A stretch of 64,000 nt of DNA, taken from the NCBI GenBank assembly GCA_038046805.1, contig JBBSVO010000006.1, positions 196,452 through 260,451 on the forward strand. The letters are read 5' to 3'. A program made the position numbers and the translations under genes. The stretch's first letter is position 1, and each line of letters opens with the position of its first letter. Below are positions 21,479 through 64,000 of the stretch, piece by piece. The notes beneath the pieces are model-generated. The model was not told where the DNA came from. It was given only the letters and a program-made list of their open reading frames with translations, and did not search any database. This stretch comes from Candidatus Micrarchaeota archaeon. Lineage in GTDB: Archaea > Micrarchaeota > Micrarchaeia > Anstonellales > Bilamarchaeaceae.

Positions 21479-21735
21479 TTGAAGCTTTTTGGATAAGGAG
21501 TTATAAGGGCAAAAACCTTCAGGAAAAACCATGGAGGTTTACGGAATCCTCCCATGCAGGGATTTTAAAAAACAATTGAGCCTTTTTGGCTTAGGGGTTA
21601 TCAGGGCAAAAACACGTCCGGTTGAACGGCGATCCGTTCAATGGACCATTGAAACCACCTTGTTTCAATAGGTCGCGAAAAACCATGGAGAAGCCAATAG
21701 TTTCGGCGCAATACTCCCATGCAAAGGATGTTAAA
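21479..21735. repeat. Two tandem diverged copies of a non-coding structured motif
   Basis: Shared blocks CTTTTTGG, GTTAT-(C)-AGGGCAAAAAC, GAAAAACCATGGAG and CTCCCATGCA, with variable inserts between them. Confidence 0.7.
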
Positions 21736-21787
21736 CTTCTTCTTGCAGTCCACATGTTTTTAACAATAGCGGAACAAATTTTCAATT

Positions 21788-22900
21788 ATGTCCGAAGCAC
21801 CATTAGTTGAAATAGACGCGTCAAAGGGAGAAGGCGGTTTGTTTGAACGACGAATCGTCCAAAGCCCGCCTTCCCAAAAAGGCAATTGCATGGTTGAAAT
21901 AGACGCGTCAAAGGGAGAAGGCGGCGGTCAGATTATCCGAACTGCCCTTTCACTCTCAGCAATTACCAAAATTCCGGTTCGTATTTTCAATATTCGTGCT
22001 AAAAGACCTAATCCTGGCCTTCAGGCACAGCATCTTATGGCTTGCAAATCCGTTCGCAATATTTGTCGCGGAACTCTTGAACATGCGGAATTAAATAGCA
22101 GCGAACTTGTTTTTCATCCAGGGGAAATCGTCGGGGGCAATTATGAATTTGATATAGGGACTGCGGGTTCTGTTGTTCTTGTTGCCCAGACTTTGATTCC
22201 TATTCTTCTATTTGCAAACAAGAAAAGCACCGTTCGGATAAAGGGCGGTACTCATGTCATGAAATCTCCAAGTTATGATTATTTCGCAGAGGTCTTTGTT
22301 CCTGCTCTTCGGAAATTTGGAATCGCTATTAAAACCCGTGTCTTGAAAATCGGTTTTTATCCTGTTGGCGGAGGAGAAATAGAATTTGAAATAGAACCGA
22401 ACCTTCCGCATGGTGTGGTGAATTGGGCAACTCCTGATAATTCTGAAGGAAAAAGAGTATTGATCCGCACTTCCTCGTCTTTGCCCGAACTCATCTCTAT
22501 TCGCGAAAAGAAAATTTTTGTCCAGAATAATCTCGAAAATGTGCGGGTATTCTCCGACCAAACTGCTTCACAAGGAAACGCCATCTTGTTCTGGGAAGGT
22601 TTCTGCGGAGCATATTCTCTTGGAGAAAGGGGAAAACGTGCAGAAGTGGTTGCTCAGGAAGCTCTTGATGAATTCAGAAAAGAAGAATCTGCGCAAGCCG
22701 ACGTAGATAAGCATCTTGCAGACCAGCTTCTTCTCTACGCGGCCCTTGCTGACGCTTCTGGCGAAAAGGCGGAGACGCGGTTCAAAACATCTGAAATAAC
22801 GGAACATCTGCGTACGAATGCAGAAATAATAAAAAAATTCAATAATAAAAAAATAGAAATAAATGAAGAGAAAAAAGAGGTTTTTGTTGGATCACTATAG
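21788..22900 (+). CDS. rtcA: RNA 3'-terminal phosphate cyclase
   Basis: IDASKGEGGGQIIRTALSLS, RPNPGLQAQH, GTAGS, GGTHV, VDKHLADQL, TEHLRTN. N-terminus duplicated; alternative start at 21890. Confidence 0.95.
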   Translation: MSEAPLVEIDASKGEGGLFERRIVQSPPSQKGNCMVEIDASKGEGGGQIIRTALSLSAITKIPVRIFNIRAKRPNPGLQAQHLMACKSVRNICRGTLEHAELNSSELVFHPGEIVGGNYEFDIGTAGSVVLVAQTLIPILLFANKKSTVRIKGGTHVMKSPSYDYFAEVFVPALRKFGIAIKTRVLKIGFYPVGGGEIEFEIEPNLPHGVVNWATPDNSEGKRVLIRTSSSLPELISIREKKIFVQNNLENVRVFSDQTASQGNAILFWEGFCGAYSLGERGKRAEVVAQEALDEFRKEESAQADVDKHLADQLLLYAALADASGEKAETRFKTSEITEHLRTNAEIIKKFNNKKIEINEEKKEVFVGSL

Positions 22901-24151
22901 TTATTTGGTCGTCTCTGCTTTATTTAGTATTTCCTCCATATTTTTCTTGTCATCCTCGCTTATGTTCTGCCCGGTGGTGTTCTCCTTTGTAGGATTTTCG
23001 AACGGTTCATCACTTTGTTTTATCGTAGTCTTGTTTGTGGTGGCAAACTCCTCGCACATCGCAACCTTGGTGGAGTTCATTATACTGCTGCATATACTGG
23101 CGTTTTTCATTGTTCCGCCAAGTTCAATGTAACAATCGTCTTTTATGCCAGATTCGGTTACGAGTTTGCATATTCCAGTGTCTTTAGCCATTATTGCTAA
23201 ATTGAGAATGCAGATATTCTTTCTTCCACCGGCAAATTCGCACAGTTCAAGGTTTTCTTTGTCCAATGCCATAGAATAAACGCATTTATCATGTTCTATT
23301 CCCTCTTTTTCAAGGCATGCTATAAACGCATTCTGGTCATCGCTTGCAGCCTGAAGCAGGGTGACGGCCTTTCCGGCAGTCAGGTTCTCCGGAACTATTA
23401 TCTCCTTATCATATTTCCAATCGGATGAAACAAGATTCCATTTACTCGTGCGATCCTTTCCAAGATAATTATATGCGAATTCCTTAGAGATAATTTCGTT
23501 CTTTTCTTCGTTATAACATAGTTTACTTTCGTATCTCTTTGGATCTCCCTGTCTTACATTAAGGCTCATCGCCTCGCTTAAAGTAAGGTTTGAATAGTCT
23601 ATAACAAAGTTTACTTCCGAGCATTTTTCTCCTTTTTCCGTGGTTTCAATAACCTCCTCAAACGTAATGGTGTTTTTTCCCTTCAGGAATTCAAATGTTT
23701 CCTTTGCAGAATCTATCTTTTCGTTGCTGAAAAATTGCCCTCCAATCACCTTTAAGTATTTCGAGAGGGCTGCACTGGTGTTTTTTACAGAACTGCAGGC
23801 ATATTCATCTTCATATTCTACACACATTACCGTGTCGTTTTCCGCAAAATAAATATTTCTTTCAGATATTGGAGTTTCTATAGTTACCTGGCGCACTGCT
23901 CCGTTCTTGCGAAGTGTTGTCCTCATGACATATTCATCAAGCGTTTCGTCATAGGCATATTCGTAATCTGTTGCGCCCTGGCCAACAAGAAGGCTTTTTT
24001 CATATATTTCAAGCGCATTGCCTGTGCTATCTTCTCCTTCACCACCGTGTTTTTGAAGGTTCGGAAGTGCATACATATAAACCGCATAACCTGCGGCAAG
24101 GAAAACGATAATCCCTAAAACCACCAGCAAAATATTTTTTACATCTGTCAT
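22901..24151 (-). CDS. Membrane-anchored extracellular protein with C-terminal Cys repeats
   Basis: N-terminal TM helix after MTDVKN, and repeated C-x(6-9)-C motifs (KDTGICKLV..KDDCY). Confidence 0.7.
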   Translation of the reverse strand: MTDVKNILLVVLGIIVFLAAGYAVYMYALPNLQKHGGEGEDSTGNALEIYEKSLLVGQGATDYEYAYDETLDEYVMRTTLRKNGAVRQVTIETPISERNIYFAENDTVMCVEYEDEYACSSVKNTSAALSKYLKVIGGQFFSNEKIDSAKETFEFLKGKNTITFEEVIETTEKGEKCSEVNFVIDYSNLTLSEAMSLNVRQGDPKRYESKLCYNEEKNEIISKEFAYNYLGKDRTSKWNLVSSDWKYDKEIIVPENLTAGKAVTLLQAASDDQNAFIACLEKEGIEHDKCVYSMALDKENLELCEFAGGRKNICILNLAIMAKDTGICKLVTESGIKDDCYIELGGTMKNASICSSIMNSTKVAMCEEFATTNKTTIKQSDEPFENPTKENTTGQNISEDDKKNMEEILNKAETTK

Positions 24152-24207
24152 AAGATAACCTCTGAACATTGGCTTTTTATATTTCTCATCTGTGCTTAAA
24201 AAGTTAT

Positions 24208-24609
24208 TGCAGGGGACAGGATTTTCAATTACCACGGGAGTATCACGCCTACGTTTTTCTTTTGGCGTGTCAGGAACGACCGACAAAACGACGCTTCGTT
24301 TTGTGGTCCATAAAACGTTACGACGTTTTATCGGACGCATCGTTCCTGAGCATGTTCAAGAACGAAATGTCGTTCTTGACATGAAACCCTCAGACCTTTT
24401 CTTTTTTAAAAGAAAAGGGGTATGGGTTTGAACCTGTGAAGACGCTAGGTCATCAGATTTCCTATCCCGCATTCGGGAAAAGAACAAACGAGATCTTGAG
24501 TCTGACGCGTTTGACCGTTGCGAAACCAGTTTCCAGTTGCCTGTTTCCAGTTCCCAAAACGCGAAACTGAAAACCCTAGACAGAAAACTGACTTCTCCGC
24601 CACCCCTGC
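24208..24609 (-). tRNA. tRNA-Leu(CAA) with three introns (24518-24594, 24459-24494, about 24222-24426)
   Basis: Four exons join to GCAGGGGTGGCGGAG|CGGTCAAACGCGTCAGACTCAAG|ATCTGATGACCTAGCGTCTTCACAGGTTCAAA|TCCTGTCCCCTGCA, an 84-nt cloverleaf with variable arm. Confidence 0.88.
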
Positions 24610-24669
24610 GCATTATATTTGCTTTTTGCCGCACCACATTTTAAAACCTTGTTAGTCTATCATCTACTC

Positions 24670-25863
24670 ATGGCAGAGCCACTATGGTTCATTGAATACC
24701 CAGTATCATTCATCTCAATTTTCGTAGCCGTATTTTTCACACTGATTTATCTGAAGAATTTCAATAGGATGGAACACAAGTCAAAGCAGGCGCATGGCTG
24801 GGAACCAAAAATAACAATTCTCATTCCTGCTTACAATGAGGAGAATTCTATAGCTGCATGTTTAGATTCAGTTCTGGCATCAGATTATCCTCGGGAAAAG
24901 ATGGAAATACTTGTTCTGGATGACGGTTCTACTGATAAGACTGCAGAGATTGCCAAGCGTTATTCAACACATGGGGTAATCGTCTGCTCAAAAGAAAACA
25001 CTGGAAAAGCAGACTCTCTTAATTTCGGAATAAAAAAATCAACAGGAGAAATAATTGCAACGCTTGATGCGGATTCGTTTATAAGTCCATATTCCATACG
25101 CAGAATGCTTCCATTGTTTGAAGATGAGACTGTTGGAGCGGTTGCTTCTGCAGTTAAAGTGAAAAAAGCAAAAAACCTATTGGAGGAGATCCAGCGCATA
25201 GAATATCTTTTTGCATTATTTTCCCGCAAGGTTGTCAGCTTTATCGAATCCGTGCAGGTAACCCCCGGACCGTTTTCCATGTTCCGCAGATGGATTTTTG
25301 ACAAGGTCGGCGATTTTGATACAAAGAGCCTTGTTGAAGATCAGGAAATAGCACTGAGAATCCAATCTCATCATTACAAAATACGCTGCTCTCTCGATGC
25401 CGACGTTTTCACCGAAATCCCACGCACGTTCCTTGACTTGATGAAACAGCGCACCAGATGGCAACGCGGAGGGTTCTGGAACTCATTAAAATATCTTAAA
25501 ATGATTAATCCAAAATACGGGGATCTGGGAATGATTATTCTTCCGTTCGGTGTGTTTGGATATCTGATGCTTGTCATCTTCCTTGTGCTTGCGGTGTACT
25601 ATATGTTTTATGGTTCTCCCTATCAGGAAGCGCTTAGCTATGATTCCTATCTGCTGGCATTCCGCGAGCTTCATGTTTTCGGAATTCTTATGATAGGCCT
25701 TGCGTTCCTGTGGCTGTTCTATGGGATGGGGAGGCTTTTCCGCGAGCAGGAGCTGCATCCAGTGTCAATCTTTTTATATATCATACTATATCCTATGTTG
25801 ATAACGTTATTTTGGTTCTCCGCAGCGTATAAAGAGCTGCGCGGAGAGGGTTTCTCGTGGTAG
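24670..25863 (+). CDS. GT2 processive glycosyltransferase (cellulose synthase/PgaC-like)
   Basis: IPAYNEE, DDGSTD, GKA, DAD, ED and QRTRW motifs, plus TM helices. Confidence 0.9.
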   Translation: MAEPLWFIEYPVSFISIFVAVFFTLIYLKNFNRMEHKSKQAHGWEPKITILIPAYNEENSIAACLDSVLASDYPREKMEILVLDDGSTDKTAEIAKRYSTHGVIVCSKENTGKADSLNFGIKKSTGEIIATLDADSFISPYSIRRMLPLFEDETVGAVASAVKVKKAKNLLEEIQRIEYLFALFSRKVVSFIESVQVTPGPFSMFRRWIFDKVGDFDTKSLVEDQEIALRIQSHHYKIRCSLDADVFTEIPRTFLDLMKQRTRWQRGGFWNSLKYLKMINPKYGDLGMIILPFGVFGYLMLVIFLVLAVYYMFYGSPYQEALSYDSYLLAFRELHVFGILMIGLAFLWLFYGMGRLFREQELHPVSIFLYIILYPMLITLFWFSAAYKELRGEGFSW

Positions 25864-25888
25864 GTGTTGAAGTCGTAAAGGTGAATCC

Positions 25889-26953
25889 ATGGAAGACGAT
25901 GCAAAACTGGAAAGAAAATCTCCGAATATTTCTCTCTATGTAATAGCGTTGGCTATTACGATCCTGATCTTCTTCACTGGAATCTATCTTGGTAGGGTTG
26001 TTGATAATTCGGTTCAACAGGGTATTGGCACCGATGTCGCATCACTTATTGAGCGAACAAATTCAATGGAGCTTTTGTTCCTTTTGGATAATTCTTCTGA
26101 TTTTTGCCCGGTATTCAAAGATGAATTATTGAAGATAGATTCGGATACAGAAAAACTCGGATACAAACTTGCGTATATCGAAGATATAAAAGGTGCTGGT
26201 GCGTCTGACCCAGACCTAAAGAAAAAATATTTCGTTCTTGAAACCGAGGCCTACCTTCTTTCCAAGAGAATCGCGGAAAGTTGCGGGTCGAGTTACGCTA
26301 ATTTCGACCTTGCGCTTTATTTCTATTCTAACAAAAAGGGCGCCTGTTTTGATTGTGATGCACAGGGAAAGGCCATTCTTGATGCGAAAAAAGAGCTTAA
26401 CCGACCATTTAAGGTTTATTCTTTTGACGGGGATCTCGGAAGCACGGTTGCGGATGCGCTGAAAACAAGACATGGTGTGACGGTCTATCCTTCACTTGTA
26501 GTCAACGGGGTTCTTTATGAGGGTTTTGTTTCAAAGGAGGAATTGCTCGGACTTCTTTCCAAAAATGCAAAAGGTGATGAAGAAATGAAACTTACAGGGG
26601 AAAAACTTTTTGCACCGTTTGGCGGGCAAACCTGCGTTTATTGGGAGAATTATGTCATAGAAGAAGGTCGCGTTTCTCAAAGTAAAAATCCATTCTATGC
26701 GGTAATTGACGGAAAGAAAATCGAGCTCGGTCTTCCACCCGCGCGCATTTTTATGAAACCGACATCTGAAAACGAAACTGTAAAAGAGTGGTGCCTCAGT
26801 CCGGATGCGGTTTATCTTGTGGAAAAGGTAACTGAAACTGCGTCTCTTCCGGATTGGGACGAAGAAAAGACTGCGTATTACATTTCTGACGCAAAATACT
26901 CTTCAGAAGAAAGGAAAAAATATTCGACGCCTGCGAGCAAATGGACATACTAA
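25889..26953 (+). CDS. Membrane-anchored thioredoxin-like protein with extra C-terminal domain
   Basis: N-terminal TM helix; YFYS...CFDC...YPSLVVNG thioredoxin-fold pattern. Confidence 0.6.
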   Translation: MEDDAKLERKSPNISLYVIALAITILIFFTGIYLGRVVDNSVQQGIGTDVASLIERTNSMELLFLLDNSSDFCPVFKDELLKIDSDTEKLGYKLAYIEDIKGAGASDPDLKKKYFVLETEAYLLSKRIAESCGSSYANFDLALYFYSNKKGACFDCDAQGKAILDAKKELNRPFKVYSFDGDLGSTVADALKTRHGVTVYPSLVVNGVLYEGFVSKEELLGLLSKNAKGDEEMKLTGEKLFAPFGGQTCVYWENYVIEEGRVSQSKNPFYAVIDGKKIELGLPPARIFMKPTSENETVKEWCLSPDAVYLVEKVTETASLPDWDEEKTAYYISDAKYSSEERKKYSTPASKWTY

Positions 26954-27028
26954 TATTTTGTCAGAATCGAAGCTTGTCAATGGAAATGTTTAAATATCCG
27001 CTATTCGTTATGTCCTTGGTGATATCGA

Positions 27029-27586
27029 ATGGTATTAGAGCTTGTCCTGATTGTGATCGTAGTCGTATTAGTCCTTATCTTATTGTGGGCAATGGGCACT
27101 TTCAATCGTTTCATCGTCCTGCGCAACAGAATTGACAATGCCTTTTCACAAATTGACGTTCAATTGAAGCGAAGATACGACCTTATTCCAAACCTTGTTG
27201 AGTGTGTTAAGGGTTATGCAAAACACGAGAAAGAGACGCTTAATGATGTTATCAAGGCCAGAAGCGGGCTTGTGCAGGGAACCCCTGATGAAAGAATTGC
27301 AGCCAACAACATGCTTACTGGGGCATTGGGAAGATTAATGGTTGTCATGGAACAATATCCCAAGCTTATGGCAAACGAGAATTTCCTGAAATTGCAGGAT
27401 GAGCTTGCCGGAACCGAGAACAAGATTGCATATGTGAGAACAGCTTATAACGACTCTGTGCTTGAGCTTAACAATGCGATTATGGTGTTTCCCGGAAGTG
27501 TAATTGCAGGAATGTTCGGATTTGTCCAAAAGGCATTCCTCGAAACTCCGGGAGAGCAGCGCGAGAACGTGAAAGTCAAGTTCTAG
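27029..27586 (+). CDS. lemA: LemA family protein
   Basis: IDVQLKRRYDLIPNLV..VKGYA.HE and YPKL.ANENF..LQ.EL..TEN.I. Confidence 0.95.
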   Translation: MVLELVLIVIVVVLVLILLWAMGTFNRFIVLRNRIDNAFSQIDVQLKRRYDLIPNLVECVKGYAKHEKETLNDVIKARSGLVQGTPDERIAANNMLTGALGRLMVVMEQYPKLMANENFLKLQDELAGTENKIAYVRTAYNDSVLELNNAIMVFPGSVIAGMFGFVQKAFLETPGEQRENVKVKF

Positions 27587-27672
27587 GCGCGCACTGGAGC
27601 CGTCCGGTTCCATTTCGTTATTTTTTCTCTTTTATTCTTATTCCGCTTTGTTTTTCGCACGGGGTTGCCATT

Positions 27673-28575: not shown

Positions 28576-28679
28576 AACTGTCAAGGTTGGTTCTTTATCA
28601 ACGTCTAACTGCCAAATGCCAACCTTTAAATATGTGTTCTGCAAACATCTGTTTGTTTCTAATTTAGAGGTGAAACTAT

Positions 28680-29387: not shown

Positions 29388-29440
29388 ACTGGGTTATACT
29401 CCCTACCACTTTATAAATCCTTGCAAAGAAAATTCTATTT

Positions 29441-31016: not shown

Positions 31017-31068
31017 GCACCTCGTTCCGATACAATTAAAACCTCAAAACTTAAAAACTAAAGTATAG

Positions 31069-31629: not shown

Positions 31630-31650
31630 ATTAATCCAAGCCAAGAAGGG

Positions 31651-32097
31651 CTATTCGTTCCTCATTCCGCCACCGGTAGTTATTCGCGGCAGTTCCTTTT
31701 GTTTTGCCATCTGTTCTTCCTTATATTCTTTCATTTCCGCATGTGCGAGATTCTTTCCATGAGAAAGCGCAAGATTTGCGAAAATCTTTGCAGTAGAATC
31801 AGTGAACGTTTCCCGATGGAGTTTTGGAAGGTCAAGTTCGTCAAGTCCCTTTTTTATTTTTCCAGCTCCCAATCCAGTTATTTCCAGCCTATGTTCGTCT
31901 ATCATTTCTTTTACTCTTGCTATAAAATTCACTTTTGAGTCTGCGCTCATTCCCTCCCCCATGCGTTCGTTACGCAAGGCTTCTGATCCAAATGTCTTAA
32001 GCATCTCTCTTTCGTCATTATGAAGATTAGCACTGAGTGCATCCCAAAGCTTTTTTGCCTGCTCAAAATTTTCATTCCCCATTTTCTCACCACTCAT
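31651..32097 (-). CDS. Hypothetical protein
   Basis: ORF fills the gap between convergent and divergent neighbours. No motif. Confidence 0.55.
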   Translation of the reverse strand: MSGEKMGNENFEQAKKLWDALSANLHNDEREMLKTFGSEALRNERMGEGMSADSKVNFIARVKEMIDEHRLEITGLGAGKIKKGLDELDLPKLHRETFTDSTAKIFANLALSHGKNLAHAEMKEYKEEQMAKQKELPRITTGGGMRNE

Positions 32098-32147
32098 TCT
32101 TTACCAGAACCAATTTTAATCCTATCCCCGAAATGACAGATGATACT

Positions 32148-33959
32148 ATGCTCCTTTTTTCAGATGTTGCTAAAGTTTTCTCGGAAATCGAATCCCGCTC
32201 GGGAAGACTGGAAATGACGGATATTCTCGCGGAATTGTTCAAGCGTGCGGACAAGTCCGAAGTTGGCCGTCTTGTTTATTTAATCCAGGGAATTCTCGCA
32301 CCACCATATGAAGGAATAGATCTTGGGCTCGGTGAACAGTTTGCGATAAGGGCAATTGCCGCCTCAGCGGGCTATTCCCGCGAACAGGTTGAAGCCAACT
32401 ACAAAAAATCCGGGGATCTGGGTCTAACTGCCGAAGAACTTCTAAAAAAGAAAAGACAACAGGCACTTTCATCAACCGAGATGGATGTCGTATACGTTCA
32501 TACGGCATTCGTGAAAATGGCAAAAACCGGAGGAACCGGTTCACAGGAATTAAAGATAAAATATCTTACTGAACTTTTGAATAATTCAGAACCGCTCGGC
32601 GGGCGGTTTATTGTTAGATTTGTAATCGGGCAGCTAAGGTTGGGCGTAGGGGATCCAACAATCCTGGACTCGCTTTCTGTTTCTCGCACTGGGGATAAAT
32701 CTCTTCGCGAGGAATTGGAGCGTGCTTATGGTGTTTGCGCTGACATGGGTTATGTTGCAACCGTTTTCTTTGAAAATCCAGATAAAATAAGAAAATTCTC
32801 TGTTCAGCCTTTCAAGCCGTTGATGCCTGCGCTTGCTGAGCGTCTTTCCACTCCTGAAGAAATCATTGAAAAAATTCCAATTTGTTCGGTTGAGATGAAA
32901 TTTGATGGGTTCAGACTTCAGGTGCACAAAAAAGGCAGTGGTGTGGAGTTCTACTCCAGAAAATTGGAAAAAATGACCCCCATGTTTCCGGAACTGGTTT
33001 CCGCGGTGCAATCCCTAAAATGTGATTCAATAATATTTGAAGGGGAGGCGTTGGCATATGAGGAGACCGGAACTGGAAAATCATTAAAAAAGAACTATCT
33101 TTCTTTTCAGGAAACGATCCAGCGAAAGCGAAAGCACGGTATTTCAGATGCAGCAAAAGCATTCCCGCTTAATTTGTTTTCTTTTGACATACTTTATCTT
33201 GACGGAAAGGACCTTACAACAGAACCATATGAAAAACGCAGGAAAATTCTTGAAAAAATATTTCCGAGCGGAAAAAATTTGAAACTAAGCGAAAGAAAAA
33301 TCATCAAATCAACAAGCGCATTGGAAAAATTATTCCGTGAATCGATGGATTCCGGGCTTGAAGGAATAATGGCAAAGGATCCAAATGCCCAATACGCCGC
33401 CGGAAAGCGCAAATTCGCCTGGATAAAGCTGAAAAAATCCTATGGTAAGGCTGTGGATACAATTGACGTGGTTATTGTTGGTTACTATCTTGGAAAAGGT
33501 GCTCGTGTGGAGTTTGAATTCGGCGGTCTTCTCGCAGCCGTGCAGAATACCGAAAGCGGAAAGCTCGAAACCGTGGCTAAAATAGGAGGTGGTTTCTCAG
33601 AAGACGAACTGCGCCAGTTTAAGGAAATGCTTGAAAAAATCCAGACAAAATCCCCACCAAAAGATTTGGAATTCAACGATGCACAGAAGCCGGATTACTG
33701 GGTTGTTCCAAAGCATGTGGCCGAAGTTGCGTTTGATGAAATTACGCAATCGCCTACGCATACGTGCGGAATGAAAACTAGTAAAGAAGGGGGTGCAAAA
33801 GGACCTTCAACTTCGCAGAAGTTGGAGGGGCAGAGAACGAAGTTCTCTGGATATGCACTGAGATTCCCGCGTCTGCTCGTTCTCAGAGAGGATAAAAGCG
33901 TGAAGGAAATAACCACGAGCGAAGAAGTTGAGTCGCTTTATTACAAGCAGAGAAAATGA
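32148..33959 (+). CDS. lig: ATP-dependent DNA ligase
   Basis: Motif I EMKFDG, EGE, FDIL, EGIMAK, WIKLK, LRFPR. Start at 32133 or 32148. Confidence 0.96.
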   Translation: MLLFSDVAKVFSEIESRSGRLEMTDILAELFKRADKSEVGRLVYLIQGILAPPYEGIDLGLGEQFAIRAIAASAGYSREQVEANYKKSGDLGLTAEELLKKKRQQALSSTEMDVVYVHTAFVKMAKTGGTGSQELKIKYLTELLNNSEPLGGRFIVRFVIGQLRLGVGDPTILDSLSVSRTGDKSLREELERAYGVCADMGYVATVFFENPDKIRKFSVQPFKPLMPALAERLSTPEEIIEKIPICSVEMKFDGFRLQVHKKGSGVEFYSRKLEKMTPMFPELVSAVQSLKCDSIIFEGEALAYEETGTGKSLKKNYLSFQETIQRKRKHGISDAAKAFPLNLFSFDILYLDGKDLTTEPYEKRRKILEKIFPSGKNLKLSERKIIKSTSALEKLFRESMDSGLEGIMAKDPNAQYAAGKRKFAWIKLKKSYGKAVDTIDVVIVGYYLGKGARVEFEFGGLLAAVQNTESGKLETVAKIGGGFSEDELRQFKEMLEKIQTKSPPKDLEFNDAQKPDYWVVPKHVAEVAFDEITQSPTHTCGMKTSKEGGAKGPSTSQKLEGQRTKFSGYALRFPRLLVLREDKSVKEITTSEEVESLYYKQRK

Positions 33960-44130: not shown

Positions 44131-44724
44131 TCACTTTACGAAGATTCTCGCAGCGAGTTTTCTGCCTATTGCAAGGTGCGTTCCACGCACTGAGATTTCT
44201 ACCGGTCCTTTGAACGGCGCTGCCTTTGTGATCGTGACCTGTGTGCCAGTTGTTAATCCCATATCTCTAAGTCTCTGTGCGGATTTTTTATCAGTCATTA
44301 TCCCTAATATCTTCGTCTTTGCGCCAACATGCAAATTTGCCAGAGGGACTCCATTTTGCGCCAGAAGTTTTTTTATTCCTTTTTCTACGTCGTCTGGAAT
44401 TGCATGTTCAAGAACGCATGCCTTTTCATGAACTCTTCGTTTTATTCCGATTAATCCAAGAAATCGTTCCATTAACCGGTGTTTTCGGGTTACCTTCTCC
44501 CCGATTTTTCCCCCTTTTTTCGTAAGCTTTGCACCGTAATATGGTTTGTATATTAGTAGTCCTCGTTTTTCAAGTTTTTTCAACATCTCGCTTACGCTGG
44601 CAGGCTTTACATTTAATTCTCTGGCAATAGCGATTGCCTTTGCGCTTTCCTTCTTTTCCTTTTTCCGGTAAATCGCCTCAAGGTATTCTTCCATCTCCTC
44701 GCTCAGAAATTCCTGTTCAACCAT
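44131..44724 (-). CDS. DtxR/MntR-family metal-dependent repressor with FeoA domain
   Basis: EEYLEAIY, V.PASVSEM, RKHRL.E.FL, ACVLEH. C-terminal RLRDMGL..G...APFKGP FeoA. Confidence 0.92.
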   Translation of the reverse strand: MVEQEFLSEEMEEYLEAIYRKKEKKESAKAIAIARELNVKPASVSEMLKKLEKRGLLIYKPYYGAKLTKKGGKIGEKVTRKHRLMERFLGLIGIKRRVHEKACVLEHAIPDDVEKGIKKLLAQNGVPLANLHVGAKTKILGIMTDKKSAQRLRDMGLTTGTQVTITKAAPFKGPVEISVRGTHLAIGRKLAARIFVK

Positions 44725-44784
44725 AAAAATTTCACCATAAATTTTTATATTTGAAATTTTCTCTTAAAAATTTCAATCCATAAA

Positions 44785-44804
44785 TGTTTAGGTGTGCCTA
44801 AACA
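44785..44804. promoter_or_regulatory. DtxR-type operator
   Basis: Palindrome TGTTTAGG-TGTG-CCTAAACA fits the TTAGG-N4-CCTAA consensus and lies immediately downstream of the minus-strand TATA box. Confidence 0.8.
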
Positions 44805-53711: not shown

Positions 53712-53785
53712 TTGAACGACCAATCGAAACGACAGTTTCAATGGTCCATGGAACGTTGCGACGTTCTATCGGACGATTCGTTCAA
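53712..53785. repeat. Dispersed double-hairpin element (other copies at 21615-21675, 24270-24349, 63970-64000)
   Basis: GAACGACC-hairpin-GGTCCA-hairpin-CGGACG..CGTTC. Confidence 0.8.
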
Positions 53786-56241: not shown

Positions 56242-56355
56242 TTACCATTTTCGGGTTATAAAATATATGACTTATAGATTAATCTCGCGTATTGCTTTCG
56301 CAATTCTTTTTTGGATCACTATAATACATAAGTGTGGATTAAAAATATTGATGAT

Positions 56356-56447
56356 TGGCTTTTAGCATTAGTTTATAGTAAGTGGCTAACTGCTAATCGC
56401 TAACCACTAACTGCAAACTGCTAATCGCTAACCACTAACTGCTAACC
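56356..56447. repeat. Heptamer tandem repeat tract
   Basis: ctaactg ctaatcg ctaacca ctaactg caaactg ctaatcg ctaacca ctaactg, preceded by a degenerate inverted arm. Confidence 0.8.
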
Positions 56448-56487
56448 CACCTTCATCTTTTTAAACCATACATTCGTGTATACTGGT

Positions 56488-58215
56488 ATGGGCCTTGACG
56501 AGCTTCTCATTACAACCGGAGTTGACGCGCTAGTTCGTCTTATTAAGGAAAAAGGTATGATTGAACTTTCTTTAGCTGCGCAGCTTTTGAATATTGATGC
56601 CGTTACTATTGAGGACTGGGCACACACACTCGAGGAAGAAGGAATAATAAAAATAGAATATCATCTCACAAAGGTCTATTTAGCATGGGTTCAGCCTTCT
56701 GCAGAGGAAATTGAAAAGGAAAAAATCTCTATCACAAAAGGAAAGCAGGAAGTGATGCAGGAGATCGCAATTCTCAGAGAAAAGATTGCCCCCCAGGGAA
56801 AGGAACTCCGGGATCTGAAGACCGAGTTTTCTGAAGTTTATAAAAAATTAAAGCCTGAAATGGAACGGCTTGGTAAATCCTTCAAGGACATCTCAGCCAC
56901 ACGGGAAAAAGGAGGAGAAAAGCTGATCAAACATCTTGAAAATCTTGACAATCTGCGTGCAGAGACAAATGGCCTTCAATCTGGCATAAATGATTTAAAA
57001 AAACAGATTTCTGAACTTTCCGAGCAATTTAAGGAGAAGTCCTCTGCAGAACCACGGATCGTTTCAATAAAAAAGATGCAAGCGTCTTTCGAAGAACTAG
57101 GTACTGATCTCGCAAGCGTTCGCAAGACTGTTACCTCTCTTGCAAAGACAAGTCAAAAACCGCCAGTGCAACATGATGAAATGAAGAAACTAGCTGCTTC
57201 AATCAATGAACAATTGGCTGCTTTGAAGAAGTCCATCGCAGAAACCCGGGGGTATGCAACAACAATAAAGGATGGCGTCGAACTTGTTGCTTTGACTGAT
57301 CAAGCTTTCAAAGAACGTTCTGATCGCATTTTACAGGCAAAAAAGGATGCCGAATCATTGCTAACTACGTTTGAAGAGTTGAAAGTGCGCAGTACTCTGC
57401 TTTCTGAGAAAATGCATGAAGATGCCGAGGCTCTGTCCCAATTATCCGAATCTGTTTCATTTGCCCATGGTAAGGGAGCTGGAAAGCAAATTTCACCGAG
57501 TGATCTCGACAAGAAACTTGTTGCTATGGAGGAAACAGAAGCAAAACTTGCTGCAAAGCTGGCTGCACTTGAGCAGGCCATGTCTTATGTTCCGAAAGAA
57601 GGGGGCGTTTCAAAAGAAGAAGTGGAAGAACTCCTGAAGACACTTGATGAAAAGAAGAAAATCCTTTCAGGTGAGATCGCGGAATTATTCAGTGCAGTAG
57701 AAGAGGAAAGCGGCACATATACGACATTCCAGAAGATAAAGGAACGCGCGCTTTCATCTCTGGAAGAATATTCCACCAAACTTGAAAAACTGAGTACCTC
57801 TATAAAATCCATTTCAGAAGAAACAGGTAAAATCGAAAAAGAAGCGGAATCCAGTTTTGAAAAATTAAAAGGAACTGTCGGTGTCAAGGACGTAGAAGGC
57901 ATTCTTTCTTCAGGAGAAAAACTAGTGGAAAAACAACATTTACTCGATGATATGGCAGAATCTATAGACGCACTTATTACAGAAGCGGATAATGTCTCCA
58001 AACATCTTAGCCTTCTTGCCAAGGAAGCGGAGTTAGTTTCTTTACGTGAGAGTGGAGTAGCTCCACCCTCTTCGCTTTCCTCAACCGGAGGAAAAGTACC
58101 GACCCAGGATGAACTTGTAACTAATCTTTCGCTTACAAATAATGAACAAAAAGACTTTGAAAAGAAAAGAGAGGAGCTAAGGAATCTCATTAAAAAGTTG
58201 TGGGAAGAAGGTTAA
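56488..58215 (+). CDS. Long coiled-coil protein with N-terminal wHTH
   Basis: ITTGVD.LV.LI...AAQLL...IEDWAHTLEEEGII, then about 480 aa of heptad-like pattern. Confidence 0.7.
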   Translation: MGLDELLITTGVDALVRLIKEKGMIELSLAAQLLNIDAVTIEDWAHTLEEEGIIKIEYHLTKVYLAWVQPSAEEIEKEKISITKGKQEVMQEIAILREKIAPQGKELRDLKTEFSEVYKKLKPEMERLGKSFKDISATREKGGEKLIKHLENLDNLRAETNGLQSGINDLKKQISELSEQFKEKSSAEPRIVSIKKMQASFEELGTDLASVRKTVTSLAKTSQKPPVQHDEMKKLAASINEQLAALKKSIAETRGYATTIKDGVELVALTDQAFKERSDRILQAKKDAESLLTTFEELKVRSTLLSEKMHEDAEALSQLSESVSFAHGKGAGKQISPSDLDKKLVAMEETEAKLAAKLAALEQAMSYVPKEGGVSKEEVEELLKTLDEKKKILSGEIAELFSAVEEESGTYTTFQKIKERALSSLEEYSTKLEKLSTSIKSISEETGKIEKEAESSFEKLKGTVGVKDVEGILSSGEKLVEKQHLLDDMAESIDALITEADNVSKHLSLLAKEAELVSLRESGVAPPSSLSSTGGKVPTQDELVTNLSLTNNEQKDFEKKREELRNLIKKLWEEG

Positions 58216-58252
58216 TCTGACATACGATTATTTATTACATAAGGTGATCCTG

Positions 58253-59854
58253 ATGGCAAAAGGCGATGAAAAAGAAAATAAACTTGTGGAATCAATAAAA
58301 GAGGGTATTGAAGAAGGCGAAGAAAGCGAAGGCTCAAAAAAGCCAGATTACCAAACGCGGGAATCTGTCAGAAAAACTTCTGCTTTATTGACTTATTATT
58401 CATTTTCCAGCGAAGGCATTCCGGTTGATGTCCGCATCACAAAAAAGGCGGATTTTGTTCCTATTTATGAGGTTACAATTCAGGGAATTGCCGAAGGTAC
58501 GAAGCTTATACTGGAAACAAAACTTCGCGCAGAACTTATTTCCGAAGTCAAACTCGATATAAGTGAAATACTTGATCCTAAACGGTTTGCAGATGTAAAG
58601 AAAAAATTCCTCGATGCCGCCGTGCGCATTCTTCAGAGAAATTTCCCAAGTCTTCCTGCAGATAAGATGAATTCACTGGCAGTATATCTTCTCCAAAACA
58701 CGCTTGGTCTCGGCGAACTTGAAATTCTTTTGTCAGATGAATTGCTTGAAGAAATTGCAATAAACAATTCCCGTGATCCAATCTGGATTTATCACAAAAA
58801 ATTCGGTTGGTGCAAGACAAATCTTCGCGTAAAAAATGAGGAAATGATTTACGATTACGCGTCTATGATCGCACGAAAGGTTGGAAGGCAGATAAACGTT
58901 CTCAACCCAATGCTTGATGCGCATCTTCCGACCGGAGACCGTGTGAACTCAACAGTGTTCCCCATCTCCCAGTTCGGAAATACACTCACGATACGAAAGT
59001 TTTCGAAAAATCCATGGACAATAACGAACCTCATCCGTTCCAAAACCGTTTCTCCCGAGGTTGCAGCGCTTATCTGGATATGTATCCAGAATGAACTTTC
59101 ACTTATTGTTTCGGGCGGAACCGGTAGCGGTAAAACCTCATTTTTGAATGCAATGGCAGGGCTTATTCCCGCGAATCAGCGTATAATCAGCATAGAAGAT
59201 ACGCGCGAGCTTACGCTCCCATCTTTCCTTCATTGGATTCCGATGAACACAAGAGAAGCGAATCCAGAGGGGAAAGGAGAAGTTACAATGCTTGATTTGA
59301 TGGTTAATGCACTAAGGCAAAGACCCGATAGAATCCTAGTCGGAGAAATCCGCAGACAGCGCGAAGCTGAGATTCTATTCGAGGCAATGCACACGGGCCA
59401 TAGTGTTTATGCAACACTTCATGCAGATAATTCCGAGCAGACGATCTCTAGATTGCTCAATCCTCCGATAAACATTCCAAAAGAAATGCTTGACGCGCTT
59501 GCCGGGATTGTTGTTCAATTCCGCCACAGGAGATTTAACATAAGGCGCACGATTGAATTTTCAGAAATGCTCAAAAACGGGAACCTCAATACAATGCACC
59601 GATGGGATGTAAAAACAGATAAAGTGAAAAACATTGCGAAATCCGAGAGGATAAATGAACTTCTTTCGCTTTACTCTGGAATGGACGATGCAGAAATAGA
59701 TGCTGACCTTGCAGAAAAAACAGACATACTGAACTGGATGGTCAAAAACGGTTATGAGGGCGTAGATGAAGTAGGGGCAATAGTTTCGCAATATTATCTT
59801 GACCCTGATTTGGTTGTTGATGCGTGCAAGAAGGGCGCAAAGTGGCAGTTTTAA
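58253..59854 (+). CDS. Type IV pilus / type II secretion ATPase (CpaF/TadA/FlaI family)
   Basis: TIRKF, Walker A GGTGSGKT, SIEDTREL, LRQRPDRILVGEIR, AMHTGH...TLHA. Confidence 0.95.
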   Translation: MAKGDEKENKLVESIKEGIEEGEESEGSKKPDYQTRESVRKTSALLTYYSFSSEGIPVDVRITKKADFVPIYEVTIQGIAEGTKLILETKLRAELISEVKLDISEILDPKRFADVKKKFLDAAVRILQRNFPSLPADKMNSLAVYLLQNTLGLGELEILLSDELLEEIAINNSRDPIWIYHKKFGWCKTNLRVKNEEMIYDYASMIARKVGRQINVLNPMLDAHLPTGDRVNSTVFPISQFGNTLTIRKFSKNPWTITNLIRSKTVSPEVAALIWICIQNELSLIVSGGTGSGKTSFLNAMAGLIPANQRIISIEDTRELTLPSFLHWIPMNTREANPEGKGEVTMLDLMVNALRQRPDRILVGEIRRQREAEILFEAMHTGHSVYATLHADNSEQTISRLLNPPINIPKEMLDALAGIVVQFRHRRFNIRRTIEFSEMLKNGNLNTMHRWDVKTDKVKNIAKSERINELLSLYSGMDDAEIDADLAEKTDILNWMVKNGYEGVDEVGAIVSQYYLDPDLVVDACKKGAKWQF

Positions 59855-59855
59855 T

Positions 59856-59935
59856 TGGCATTGAGCCTTGGGAGTGAGCTTTGAGCCATTGGCCCACGGC
59901 CCATCGCCCACTGCTCACAGCTAAATGGTGGCTAA
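59856..59935. repeat. Inverted heptamer repeat tract
   Basis: tgagcct tgggagt gagcttt gagccat / tggccca cggccca tcgccca ctgctca cagctaa. Confidence 0.7.
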
Positions 59936-59938
59936 AAA

Positions 59939-61927
59939 ATGGCTGAAACAGCGTCGTTTGATGATTTGGTAGTTTCCGTGCGCAGAATAGAGTCTACTGC
60001 ACTTCCAAAATCTGACTTTCCTGAAAAAATAGATGCACGGAGAGTACTCGAATTTTCCCCAACGAAATTTTTAGACCAGGGATATCATGAAATTTTGAAT
60101 GACTATTCTGTAATTCAGAAGATTATCTCTACGTCAAAGCTTGATATTTTTACTTCTGGGGCAGGAGGAGAAAGAAAAGTCCCGCAGATGCAAACAATGG
60201 AAATAGAGTCAAAAGTAAAAGAAATAACTTCTGCGGCACTTGAAAGCAGGATGAAACTCGAGGAAGTCACTGTACCACCCCCAATAGAAGAATTTGAGGC
60301 TGAAAAAGGAGCAGAAAAAGTATCCTTAGAAAAACCCCAACCCACGAAGCCCTCTAAATCTCCGTCGGCTATGTTGTTCGAATCGGATTTTGACAAGGAA
60401 TTGGAATCTGAATTTAAGCTTGAAGTTGAAAAAGAAAAAACCATCTCATTTGAAGAAAAACCCGTAGAAGCGTTGGGTAAGGAAGCGAAAAAGTCCGGGA
60501 AACCGGAATTTGAAGGTTTTGGGAGTGAAAAAGAGGAAGTTGTTGCCCCGCAATTTGAAGTTGAAACCGAAACAAAGGACGAAGCGCAAAAGAAAACTGA
60601 AAAAGAATTGAAGCCAACCAAGCTCACATTGCCCGTTCCAGAAGAAAAGGAGATTGAAAAACCATCAGAAGAATCTTTGCCTGAAAAACAGCTAGTTGAG
60701 GAAGTTCATCCAGAACTAAAGCATGCGGAACCAAAGGTACCTCCGCTTTTGTTGCAACGTTCTGAGCAAGCCGGAGCCCAGCATTTTGAAAAAATGGAAG
60801 AGCACTTCAAATCAGAGTGGGGCGCGGGAATGAGCGAATCAGATATTCGAAAAAAGATGGTAGAACTTACGCGAGAGCTTTTCAAGGAAAAATCAACTGT
60901 TCGTAAAGAGGAGCTGAAAGCGCAGATTGTGATGTTAAAAGGTATGCTTGGAAAAGGAGAAGGGGCCGTCGTGGCACCAGCGTCTGTCGCTGTCTTAAAA
61001 TCGGAAAAAGAAGAAAAAGAAACTGAAAAGCAGGATAAAAAGGCAAGGGCATTGGCTGCCCTGCGAGCCTTAAAAGAAAGGCGCAAGGGCGGTGCTGGAA
61101 AAGAAATTCCAATGGCTCCAGAATCTGCGGCAGTGGCAAAGCCAAGCTATTCCACAGGATTGCTGGAAACTGTTTCAAACACCCAGCGCGTAGAACTAAC
61201 CTCTGCCAAAGAGAATGTTCTTTCATCATTTTCATCGAAAATCCAGGAATTTAAGGATCAATTTAATTCTTCAGTTGCTGCATTGGAGGAAGATGAACGT
61301 GAAGAAGGCAAAAAGAAGGCCTATGATAAATTCATCTTCAGTCTCACCGCTTTGAAGAATCAGCTCCCGGCATTTTCAGCAAAATTTGAGTCATTTGTTG
61401 CCAAAAAACATTCTTCCGAGCTCGGGAAACTTAAGGAATCTGTTGAAAAAGAAGATCCAAAGGGCGCGACGGCCGTTTCCGAAAAAATATCCACACTTCA
61501 AAAAATATATGCAGACGAATTTGAAAATGTCCGCGATATCATCTCGCGAAATATAGATTCGGTTATAGATTCAATGGGTCCATTCGTATTTGCTGCAAAA
61601 GAAGAAGTAAAGGAAAAAGAAGAGCCTGCGCAAAAAGAGGAAATTTCGGGAAAGAGTGAAACCAAACCCAAAGAAAAGAAACCCGAAAAATCGGAAAAAC
61701 AAGAAAAACAGGAAAAGTTTGAATCGGAAGACGTCCTTCGTGAGATCGAGGGTATGGATGACGGCAGTTTGCTATACTATCTCCATTCCACTGATAAAGA
61801 AACCTATCGTCAATACGAGCGCAAGCATATATCCAAACACGAGGCGGTTTTCAAGGCAAAGAGATTGATTGCCAAGGAACGTGGCATGAGTGCGGTTCAA
61901 CTCGCAAAATATTTCGGAAAAGGTTAG
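59939..61927 (+). CDS. Hypothetical highly charged helical protein within the pilus locus
   Basis: 662-aa E/K-rich ORF between the ATPase and TadC genes. Confidence 0.7.
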   Translation: MAETASFDDLVVSVRRIESTALPKSDFPEKIDARRVLEFSPTKFLDQGYHEILNDYSVIQKIISTSKLDIFTSGAGGERKVPQMQTMEIESKVKEITSAALESRMKLEEVTVPPPIEEFEAEKGAEKVSLEKPQPTKPSKSPSAMLFESDFDKELESEFKLEVEKEKTISFEEKPVEALGKEAKKSGKPEFEGFGSEKEEVVAPQFEVETETKDEAQKKTEKELKPTKLTLPVPEEKEIEKPSEESLPEKQLVEEVHPELKHAEPKVPPLLLQRSEQAGAQHFEKMEEHFKSEWGAGMSESDIRKKMVELTRELFKEKSTVRKEELKAQIVMLKGMLGKGEGAVVAPASVAVLKSEKEEKETEKQDKKARALAALRALKERRKGGAGKEIPMAPESAAVAKPSYSTGLLETVSNTQRVELTSAKENVLSSFSSKIQEFKDQFNSSVAALEEDEREEGKKKAYDKFIFSLTALKNQLPAFSAKFESFVAKKHSSELGKLKESVEKEDPKGATAVSEKISTLQKIYADEFENVRDIISRNIDSVIDSMGPFVFAAKEEVKEKEEPAQKEEISGKSETKPKEKKPEKSEKQEKQEKFESEDVLREIEGMDDGSLLYYLHSTDKETYRQYERKHISKHEAVFKAKRLIAKERGMSAVQLAKYFGKG

Positions 61928-61958
61928 TTTTATAAAACTCCAATACAAAGGTGTTTCA

Positions 61959-62834
61959 ATGGTTGCTAGAAAATTCATTCCTGCCCAGGAACGGCAAAGA
62001 AAATATAATCCGTTTACTCCTATTGCAGAGCTTTTGCTTCCATATTTTCCGGATTTGAAAAAGAAATTGATCGGAGGACAGATCCAGCAGTCACCTATCG
62101 AATTTCTCGAAAGAGCGGCAATGTCTACGAGTTTTCTCTCAATAGCGCTTATCATTCTCACTGTTATGTTTTTTGTGCGAACAAATACATCTCTATTTTT
62201 CATTATTCCTTTTTTAGTCGTATATCCGTTTCTCACATTCAATTTTATGATGCTTTATCCTGATGCTTATCTAAAGAAAAGGCAAAGGGAACTAGATCGG
62301 GACATAGTATTTGCAGGAAGACACCTGGTAATTGCTCTCCGCTCCGGAATGCCGCTTTTTGATTCAATTGTCGGTGTGTCCTCTGGCCATGGAGAAGTTA
62401 GCAAGGAATTCAATTCTATTGTTGAAAGGGTTACGATCGGTACTCCTCTCTCACAGGCAATCCGCGAGGTTGCTCAGAACAACCCCTCAAAGTCTTTTGT
62501 TCGCCTTACAATGCAGATAAACAATGCCCTTTCTTCTGGTGCTGATGTTGCAAGTTCCATGGATGCAGTGCTTGATCAAATTTCAAAGGAGCAGATGATC
62601 GATCTAAAAGAATATGGGCAAAAACTTACCCCGATGGTAATGTTCTTTATGATATTCGGGATTATCATGCCATCGCTTGGCGTTGCATTTGCGATAATCC
62701 TGTTCTCGTTGATAAGTGGTGGGAAAGTTGGAATAACTTCTTCGGTTCTAGTGCTTGTGTTTGCGCTTATAGCCGTAGTTCAGTTCTTGTTCCTGGCAAT
62801 GGTGGAGAATTCAAGACCCAATTATGTAGTTTAG
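61959..62834 (+). CDS. Type II secretion system F (TadB/TadC) membrane protein
   Basis: LRSGMPL, GEVSKEF, NPSK.F, SGADVA, KEYG.KL, plus TM helices. Confidence 0.9.
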   Translation: MVARKFIPAQERQRKYNPFTPIAELLLPYFPDLKKKLIGGQIQQSPIEFLERAAMSTSFLSIALIILTVMFFVRTNTSLFFIIPFLVVYPFLTFNFMMLYPDAYLKKRQRELDRDIVFAGRHLVIALRSGMPLFDSIVGVSSGHGEVSKEFNSIVERVTIGTPLSQAIREVAQNNPSKSFVRLTMQINNALSSGADVASSMDAVLDQISKEQMIDLKEYGQKLTPMVMFFMIFGIIMPSLGVAFAIILFSLISGGKVGITSSVLVLVFALIAVVQFLFLAMVENSRPNYVV

Positions 62835-62839
62835 GTGAA

Positions 62840-63901
62840 ATGACTATGGCCGTACGCTCATCTTTCTTTGAAATCTTCGGAAGGCTCTTATCCAGAGAGC
62901 AGATACGCGGCATAAGCAAGCACCTTTCAGCAGCAGGCATAGAATACTCGGCAGAGGCATTTGCAGGATACTTTGTCCTTAACGTGGTTATTCTCACTCT
63001 TTTACTTGCATTTTCCATTTGGTATGTTCCTTCTCTCAATAAACTGGTGTTCGGCCTTGTTCTTGTCGTACTGCCAACTGCATATGCAGAAGTTGTTGCA
63101 ATAATGTCTGTGATGCTCGCAGTGTTCGTAGTATTTTTTGTTCTATTCTTCGTTCTGTCCTCTGTTCTTATAGTTATGACCGAAGCGCGCAGAAAGGCAC
63201 TCGAAGCAGCACTTCCAGACTTTCTCATGCTTGTTGCAGCGAACATCCGCGCAGGAATGCCGCTTGATCAGGCGATGTGGTATTCTGCAAAACCGGATTT
63301 TGGTTTAATCTCAACAGAAATAAAAAGTATAATCAAAAAATCATTCAGCGGAAGTTCTCTTTCATCAGTGCTTGACGAGCTTTCTGAAAGATTTGATTCA
63401 AAGGTTTTTGCAAGAACTGTCTCATTGATAAAACAAGCATCTAATACTGGTGGAGAGCTTTCAGAAATACTTGAACGCACTTCTCAGGATGCGCGCAATG
63501 CGCTTTTAATGAAAAAGGAAATCTCCGCCTCTCTAGTGCTATACGAAATTTTTGTATTCTTTTCCGCTGCGATAGGAACTCCATTCCTGTTTTCAGTTTC
63601 ATCAAAACTTATCGGAGTTCTTGAAAAGGCATTTACCTATCTCCCAGCCACAAAAACATCTGTACAGCAATTTTCATTCTTCAAGCCAGTTGCCCCACTG
63701 GTTACTTCAACGGAATTTTATTATTTCACCTTGGCAGCCCTGCTTGTAACAGCAATCTTCTCATCATTCATCATAGGTGTGATTCGCACAGGTTCAAAGA
63801 ACGAGGGAATCAAATTCCTTCCGTTTGTTGCGGTGAGCGCGTTTATAGTTTATTTCATTGTGTCCACGCTTTTGGACACGTTCTTTTCAAGTATTTCTTG
63901 A
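62840..63901 (+). CDS. Type II secretion system F (TadC) membrane protein
   Basis: LPDFL...AANIRAGM...A......FG...E, TGG.L..IL, plus TM helices. Confidence 0.9.
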   Translation: MTMAVRSSFFEIFGRLLSREQIRGISKHLSAAGIEYSAEAFAGYFVLNVVILTLLLAFSIWYVPSLNKLVFGLVLVVLPTAYAEVVAIMSVMLAVFVVFFVLFFVLSSVLIVMTEARRKALEAALPDFLMLVAANIRAGMPLDQAMWYSAKPDFGLISTEIKSIIKKSFSGSSLSSVLDELSERFDSKVFARTVSLIKQASNTGGELSEILERTSQDARNALLMKKEISASLVLYEIFVFFSAAIGTPFLFSVSSKLIGVLEKAFTYLPATKTSVQQFSFFKPVAPLVTSTEFYYFTLAALLVTAIFSSFIIGVIRTGSKNEGIKFLPFVAVSAFIVYFIVSTLLDTFFSSIS

Positions 63902-64000
63902 ATATACAAAACCAACCAAGTAATTCCGAGTGTTGACTTTGGAATTTCAGAGAGGGTTTTGTATAGATTGACCGACAAATCGGCGCACCGATTTGTGGTC

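Follow-up and report, generated by a model that had tools for sequence, protein, structure and literature searches.

A short double hairpin recurs in a 64,000-nucleotide stretch of DNA (the window) from a Candidatus Micrarchaeota archaeon of the family Bilamarchaeaceae (GenBank assembly GCA_038046805.1, contig JBBSVO010000006.1, positions 196,452 to 260,451 of the forward strand), and one of its copies lies inside a tRNA intron. The locus raises the question of whether this element is mobile DNA or a structured RNA, and of how it would move. The original prediction had listed four dispersed copies and had proposed either a mobile palindrome resembling repetitive extragenic palindromic (REP) sequences and MITEs (transposable elements of the miniature inverted-repeat kind), or an RNA module that persists in neutral loops. 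All four copies are real and were recovered with the predicted positions and letters; the pattern of the first hairpin matched the window exactly 4 times, against 0.01 matches expected from 100 shuffles. The element, here called A-type, is multi-copy, is present or absent at homologous sites, and nests in other copies, in the ends of IS200 insertion sequences, in diversity-generating retroelement (DGR) cassettes, and in tRNA introns. Its copies in the window, together with the related B-type hairpin that hosts the first of them, are given below.

24280..24335, plus strand: A-type copy 1 (CC...GG plus one A), where stem and loop meet in a B-type hairpin
24268..24381, no strand assigned: B-type double hairpin hosting copy 1 (TGTC...GACA, linker CATG, inner bulges; 58 nt when empty)
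53720..53773, plus strand: A-type copy 2, inside a host hairpin at 53712-53785
21617..21672, minus strand: A-type copy 3, upstream of the RNA 3'-phosphate cyclase gene
63972..64000, plus strand: A-type copy 4, cut by the window end, between co-directional genes

The A-type unit consists of CC...GG plus one A and is about 56 bases in size. The outer GAACG...CGTTC arms (24274 and 53714), originally taken as part of it, form a separate host hairpin. The feet are CC/GG, and the C of the proposed 'CGGAC' foot is a variable bulge (C, T, or A). The boundaries of the B-type double hairpin were taken from empty sites. Copy 4 is complete in the genome (C6:260423-260477), and the copy at 53720 carries one mismatch and one G-T pair in its stems. 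Across the window genome (G000, ~1.2 Mb) a structure-aware detector found 17 A-type copies, against 0 in each of 8 Markov-3 controls, and the copies lie in spacers, tRNA introns, or repeated non-coding elements, as judged by their flanks and flanking open reading frames (ORFs). Searches were made with patterns and an nhmmer profile instead of a covariance model, so copy numbers are undercounted for diverged copies.

Mobility was assessed against a second genome of the same genus (G001), of which ~1.19 Mb was compared and whose long alignments show ~81% identity. At the orthologous places there, all four window copies are absent. Copy 2 lies between convergent genes for an M50 peptidase and ribosomal protein S8e, and no such copy occurs at the orthologous junction in G001. 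Copy 3 lies in the second unit of a 97-nt tandem duplication (window 21479-21700); this unit is missing from G001 together with the copy, and the first unit is conserved there. The spacer of copy 4 holds other elements in G001. Gapped alignments around hairpins of the two genomes yielded 46 inserts no longer than 80 nt, and 39 of these measured 43-59 nt; not all are clean. Of 6 informative sites, 5 distinct filled ones (6 comparisons) had an A-type insert of CC...GG plus one A; two of the five are repeated elements, and the others lie in the left-end hairpin of an IS200, in a DGR leader, and in a tRNA D-loop intron. Empty sites in orthologous loci, for which the original prediction had proposed a search, were thus found for the A-type and also for the sister B- and C-types described below. 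With empty orthologous and paralogous sites, nested insertions, and a lineage-restricted spread, the interpretation as a REP- or MITE-like mobile palindrome is supported.

Both flanking bases are A in 24 of the 24 copies that were detected without forcing them (G000 and G001 together), and G precedes the left A in 136 of 145 copies, a count partly forced by the search patterns. When empty sites were rebuilt, 26 of 90 fell in perfect hairpins, compared with 152 of 3636 intergenic GA sites (4.2%), and 16 were located exactly at the stem-loop junction. Part of this bias toward hairpin tips may be explained by a plain preference for CGAC, which is common in the family's own loops. The strength of the bias favors a route through host repair with no dedicated enzyme, in which hairpins extruded at forks or cruciforms would be cut, then patched by repair or replication through template switching or gene conversion from palindrome to palindrome, dumbbells copied into tips, and stems kept perfect. 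It is favored also by the lack of a linked transposase, by the shuffling of arms between subfamilies, and by the example of bacterial CGTC repeats, which are likewise described as having no dedicated transposase (excerpt of PMC3733652). Such a route is nevertheless unlikely, since the boundaries are base-exact and always adjoin an A, 64 of the 90 empty sites lie outside perfect hairpins, and the element is patchy within a single family (35 of 99 genomes), a pattern closer to that of a parasite relying on some variable factor.

The A-type consensus reads A CC D AYWRA..loop..TYWRT GG T CC AYDRW..loop..WYHRT H GG A. Both halves form hairpins of ~9 bp, each with one bulge on the outer side and CC/GG as its foot, and the central T can pair with either flanking A. 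The prediction that the stems change while keeping their pairing was supported by 51 aligned copies whose relatedness was not controlled: 99.1% of 1067 cells were paired, two-sided changes occurred at 13 of 21 pairs, and the covariation score was 0.50, compared with 0.145 for shuffled alignments and at most 0.12 when the pairing was slid. Taken alone, the count of pairs with a two-sided change did not exceed that of shuffles (115 of 500). Over 145 distinct cores, the outer stem pairs were Watson-Crick in 2012 of 2030 cases, with 4 G-T, 9 A-C, and 5 other pairs, a fraction inflated by the detector, which demanded 6 of 7 pairs.

Stems that are ~99% Watson-Crick with almost no G-U point to DNA rather than RNA, and the element looks like a DNA hairpin that can be read on either strand, not an RNA helix. 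Its orientation relative to the flanking frames is unbiased (21/20/17/11), and both orientations were found by eye in tRNA genes. The structured RNA module of the original prediction is disfavored by this lack of bias and by the 4 G-T against 9 A-C pairs. The comparison with Rfam 15 gave 0 matches at gathering score in the window, and thus no described RNA family; 5 weak matches (E<=5) fell in 21300-24700, none of them over an A-type copy. A host-functional structured RNA or cis-element under selection, such as a terminator, a processing site, or a protein-binding site, would account for covarying stems and for a location in non-coding DNA and tRNA introns. It is highly improbable, being largely refuted by the empty sites (0 of 4 window copies at the orthologous place), and the copies interrupt insertion sequence ends and each other, show no orientation bias, and have no Rfam match over or near them. 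The terminator role in particular was rejected because of the lack of orientation bias.

Two sister subfamilies share arms with the A-type element, and arms are shuffled between the subfamilies. The B-type has TGTC...GACA ends, a CATG linker, and inner bulges, and the C-type has CGC...GGG ends and a GCGCCC linker; sister copies are sometimes in frame within genes. Insertion added no extra base at 3 of 3 C-type sites and at 5 of 6 B-type sites. In all three types the net insert consists of two bulged hairpins with their feet stacked end to end, so that the single strand folds as a nicked dumbbell and, when circularized, as a fully closed one. The joined ends are complementary to the internal linker (GGACC and GGTCC in the A-type), and the sister subfamilies follow the same rule with other linkers; this complementarity was found in 134 of 135 elements with GGTCC, 7 of 7 with GCGCCC, and 2 of 3 with ATGCCC. 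The rule explains the extra A of the A-type, with its 5-nt linker, and the absence of one in the C-type, with its 6-nt linker. B-type copies are inserted in A-type linkers at GG^TCC, which on the other strand is GGA^CC, the same bond as the A-type junction. For all three types the insertion can be described as lying 3' of an A on one strand. The B-type flanks, weak evidence on their own, have A and T on both sides in 14 of 23 cases, on one side in 9 of 23, and on neither in 0 of 23.

These ends also bear on a classical MITE with short terminal inverted repeats (CC-N-AYW), a 1-bp A duplication, and a DDE transposase. The ends are inverted (CCDAYW...WRTHGG), one A is repeated, and the bases at the two bulges show weak complementarity (46 of 84, compared with 36.3 expected; p=0.014). 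The ends do not covary beyond the bulge, however (p=0.26), and the two halves vary independently, being alike in 15 of 84 copies compared with 12.7 when shuffled, so the ends are not a paired terminal inverted repeat. With the C- and B-types adding no base, and no insertion sequence with matching ends among the neighbors (DDE families were not searched genome-wide), a classical MITE is very unlikely.

We read the A-type as mobile DNA that is non-coding and non-autonomous. We consider the chances about even that it moves as a nicked or closed single-stranded dumbbell by strand transfer 3' of an A, with an enzyme supplied in trans. The element would leave single-stranded DNA as the dumbbell, through strand exchange between two adjacent phosphodiesters, and would be joined 3' of an A elsewhere in single-stranded DNA, frequently at a hairpin tip. 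Insertion would proceed without a true target duplication, as for the circles of IS200/IS605, and the enzyme would read the shape together with a short foot. Copies would persist where they are harmless and in this way would build up tRNA introns. IS200/IS605 elements move as single-stranded circles, with hairpin recognition and base-paired guide sequences (according to excerpts of PMC6006769), and HUH-like chemistry is a fair guess from the insertion signature.

No enzyme was found linked to the element. Among the 591 frames neighboring 151 copies the largest clusters were those of DGR target proteins (9), Fic proteins (9), DGR reverse transcriptases (4), and Y1 proteins (3), and no gene flanks most copies. 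The proposed link to RAYT transposases was not supported: RAYT (NF047646, 80-bit cut-off) was found in 0 of 5 element-rich genomes, which are 74-90% complete, and the best match, at 22 bits, was the IS200 TnpA. The only Y1 HUH gene of G000 (C3:134402-134875) encodes this IS200 TnpA (103 bits, NF033573), which has its own ends, with B- and C-type copies in the left one; a second copy of the right end lies at another contig end. The reading of the hairpins beside this single Y1 gene as a RAYT system was dropped because the protein is of the IS200 type with its own ends. Among the matches listed, related IS200 ends are mostly empty of the element, which is inserted in such ends at variable places, as a passenger. 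The resident IS200 TnpA is the only HUH candidate for the mover that was found. IS110, found in 1 of the 5 element-rich genomes, not G000, and serine resolvases, found in 0 of 5, were rejected as movers; tyrosine recombinases were found in 3 of 5. The template repeat and target gene mark the reverse transcriptase as a DGR enzyme; it occurs in G000, G001, and a third genome, G039, and was not matched in 2 of the 5 element-rich genomes (74% and 81% complete). The element is found repeatedly next to DGR cassettes. A-type copies occur in DGR leaders, at the same site in L396 and L306, and C-type copies lie in frame in the hairpin that directly follows the variable repeat of the DGR (L396, L073, L232). 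Bordetella DGRs need a DNA hairpin or cruciform at just this place (excerpt of PMC3240598). The DGR cassette L274 (G000 C11:460-2581) comprises the target gene, template repeat, and reverse transcriptase; the reverse transcriptase frame shifts at a long G run and is also split in G001 and G039.

Several observations weigh against strand transfer of a dumbbell, in addition to the inflated pairing fraction given above. One A-type pair (L306), whose left flank has an indel of 1 base, fits 0 extra bases, and one A-type comparison (L254) fell on a non-orthologous place. For the A-type alone, a 1-bp duplication of A is indistinguishable from an element end that resembles the target. A single mismatch at the junction occurs in each of five variant-linker elements. 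Duplications of 4-32 nt accompany other hairpin inserts in these genomes, which means that several mechanisms are at work. Among the matches listed, the IS200 end hairpins are unlike the element arms. In tallies made by hand on incomplete and related genomes of the family, neither Y1 genes, for which the original prediction had proposed a search (11 of 35 element-bearing genomes and 14 of 64 others, p=0.34), nor reverse transcriptases (13 of 35 and 15 of 64, p=0.17) were significantly associated with the element. No circle junction and no empty allele were seen in the contigs of 4 population runs, which is no evidence of absence because contigs drop rare forms.

Further hairpin inserts and repeats were recorded in these genomes. 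At 21806-21924 the RNA 3'-phosphate cyclase gene has an in-frame 87-nt insert at its start that is missing in G001, in which a perfect 32-nt coding duplication surrounds a hairpin with a family arm; it is a long-duplication relative of the element. A 48-nt in-frame hairpin insert (33805-33852; C6:230256), also missing in G001, lies near the end of a 640-aa ORF (32037-33959). A further double-hairpin subfamily with linker AT, next to another hairpin, was located at 44723-44804, with similar ones at G000 C4:57947 and C4:64118. At the end of G000 C7 and the start of C8 (L268, L269), a head-to-tail array of a 57-nt double-hairpin unit breaks the assembly. A non-coding IS200/IS605-like repeat of ~150 nt, multi-copy in G039, holds A- or B-type inserts at neighboring sites (L251-L255, L082, L046).

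Copy 1 was confirmed to lie within a tRNA intron, and the host gene and related introns are given below.

24208..24609, minus strand: tRNA-Leu(CAA) gene with three introns, from ARAGORN on the in silico spliced form
24222..24426, minus strand: T-loop intron at position 59/60, 205 nt, a stack of hairpin modules, with the A-type in the B-type in the intron
G000 C3:197264; L184:164; L189:13108; L170:3930: double hairpins of 45-48 nt that are whole introns, from the G000/G001 comparison

The exons on the minus strand are 24609-24595, 24517-24495, 24458-24427, and 24221-24208, separated by introns in the D-loop (24594-24518), the anticodon loop (24494-24459), and the T-loop (24426-24222). Neither ARAGORN nor Rfam detected this gene in the unspliced window, and a clean tRNA was obtained only after the three introns were removed in silico; hairpin inserts thus hide tRNA genes from both tools. 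The G001 orthologue has no T-loop intron, and two other relatives have shorter T-loop introns in tRNA-Leu(CAA) with some modules in common. As read from the sequence, the central helix of the 205-nt intron is TTCA/TGAA and is accompanied by two bulges of 3 nt, which is a bulge-helix-bulge motif. Each of the 45-48 nt double hairpins constitutes an entire intron, sited in a tRNA T- or D-loop or close to the 3' end of 16S rRNA, and is found in only one of G000 and G001; one of them has the same arm sequence. In the dumbbell hairpin family, the assembly and gain of tRNA introns can be seen between two species that share a genus. Transposed tRNA introns of Thermoproteales were reportedly described by Fujishima et al. 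in 2010, with related sequences in the introns of different tRNAs. They are alike in the recent gain of a 59/60 intron and differ in that the A-type element is a module inside introns, lies mostly outside tRNA genes, and is not itself the spliced unit. The route by which introns arrive is stated to be still open in the part consulted of a 2026 preprint on Asgard tRNA introns (10.64898/2026.10.13.758758).

Three side observations concern these introns. A contig from an RNA run, single and at depth 3, spans 24222-24417 with 5 unmatched letters beyond the 3' end of the T-loop intron, and this hints at best weakly at excision of the intron, as other RNA contigs are scattered over the region. Degenerate 7-nt tandem repeats fill the D-loop intron (24518-24594) and spacers at 8249-8287, 17861-17913, and 56385-56440. 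A count of tRNA-hosted copies at a lowered ARAGORN threshold (14 and 7 by strand) included many doubtful calls and was not relied on.

The intron relatives favor a route through RNA, in which the element would be excised or carried as a small circular RNA, made by the archaeal splicing endonuclease and RtcB, then reverse-transcribed, for example by the DGR enzyme, and inserted; the family would have its origin in mobile bulge-helix-bulge introns. Related double hairpins are whole gained introns in tRNA and 16S rRNA of G000 and G001, the DGR enzyme is present in three of the genomes, DGR leaders hold A-type copies, the target hairpin of the DGR holds C-type copies, and a micrarchaeal endonuclease cuts relaxed motifs at 59/60 (excerpt of PMC3239211). 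An RNA intermediate is rather unlikely all the same, since the A-type ends with their flanks (read from the flanking sequence) form no bulge-helix-bulge, G-T pairs are enriched on neither strand, both orientations occur in tRNA genes and relative to flanking frames, and the co-occurrence with reverse transcriptase is not significant, with no match in 2 of 5 element-rich genomes.

Similar elements are known elsewhere. The double-hairpin and repetitive hairpin-forming elements in mitochondria of Allomyces and sponges are, to our knowledge, unrelated to the A-type element in sequence. They consist of two adjacent hairpins, are mobile between close relatives, and have no flanking duplication and no known enzyme; they are organellar, and no dumbbell closure rule appears in the portion of their description consulted (PMC2800124). 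REP, BIME, and REPIN sequences with their RAYTs resemble the element in being short hairpins that have a bulge and an invariant foot, in forming mosaics and inverted doublets, and in their extragenic location and lineage-restricted spread (excerpts of PMC3116915 and PMC6006769), and as in REPINs the doublet is the mobile unit and is multi-copy. The element differs in its feet (ACC/GGTCC/GGA, with no GTAG or GT[AG]G foot), in having no RAYT gene and an archaeal host, in hairpins that share one 5-6 nt linker and close as a dumbbell instead of one long hairpin, and in its 4-17 A-type copies per genome, compared with hundreds for REPs. RAYT subclasses are unreported in Archaea, where only the IS200-type subclass 1.1 is known, in the excerpted text of PMC6006769. 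CGTC-tagged repeats and Rickettsia palindromic elements are also palindromes with no dedicated transposase, often dimers and sometimes in frame (excerpt of PMC3733652); they are bacterial, and the element has no CGTC tag and a different architecture. IS200/IS605 ends and their MITEs are alike in the inferred single-stranded circle and in an apparent insertion 3' of a short target with an end resembling the target (excerpt of PMC6006769). The B- and C-types, with 0 extra bases, fit such insertion, and the A-type fits if the extra A is its own, with a target of only A or GA. The element has no separate left and right ends with tetranucleotide cleavage sites, and its arms are unlike the resident IS200 ends. 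From classical DDE MITEs it differs in having no paired terminal inverted repeats and no target duplication of fixed length (0 or 1 extra base).

The literature search, which covered sources other than subscription journals and supplements, found only analogues and no description of the element, and for DPANN archaea it turned up no account of mobile palindromes of the REP kind whose mobile unit is defined. A 2026 survey of archaeal insertion sequences contains neither 'hairpin' nor 'palindrom' in its main text (PMC13343696). The element is real and mobile and is like REP doublets, CGTC repeats, and mitochondrial double hairpins, but it has neither a RAYT nor a GTAG foot and shares no IS200 ends.

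The A-type family is nearly confined to Micrarchaeota. A strict pattern run over 185,579 species genomes gave 51 loci, of which 47 are titled Micrarchaeota or Bilamarchaeaceae; the others are 2 archaea without further name, 1 'ainarchaeum', and 1 short Chloroflexota contig whose locus is identical to a Micrarchaeota copy. The element is present in 35 of 99 genomes of the Bilamarchaeaceae, and class-wide matches occurred in 34 of 401 genomes, four of which were non-hairpin chance matches. Metagenomes yielded 95 matching stretches, and viral contigs 0. IS200 ends, insertion sequence-like repeats, and DGR cassettes may be carriers of the element between lineages. Two loci (L318 and L345), in genomes that belong to separate orders (G298 and G188), are identical in both the element and its flanks, through recent transfer or misbinning.

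A broader interpretation, possible but held only tentatively, is that Micrarchaeota harbor a new minimal class of DNA parasite, whose closed single-stranded dumbbells would be opened in the middle of the central helix and moved by a strand-transfer enzyme, perhaps a housekeeping one, and whose hairpin family would supply whole tRNA and rRNA introns. Because the boundary rule for the dumbbell is exact, it defines a concrete substrate and predicts the scissile bond, which makes a biochemical search for the missing enzyme feasible. If true, a dumbbell parasite class and introns supplied by its hairpins would provide a testable route for intron gain in archaea.

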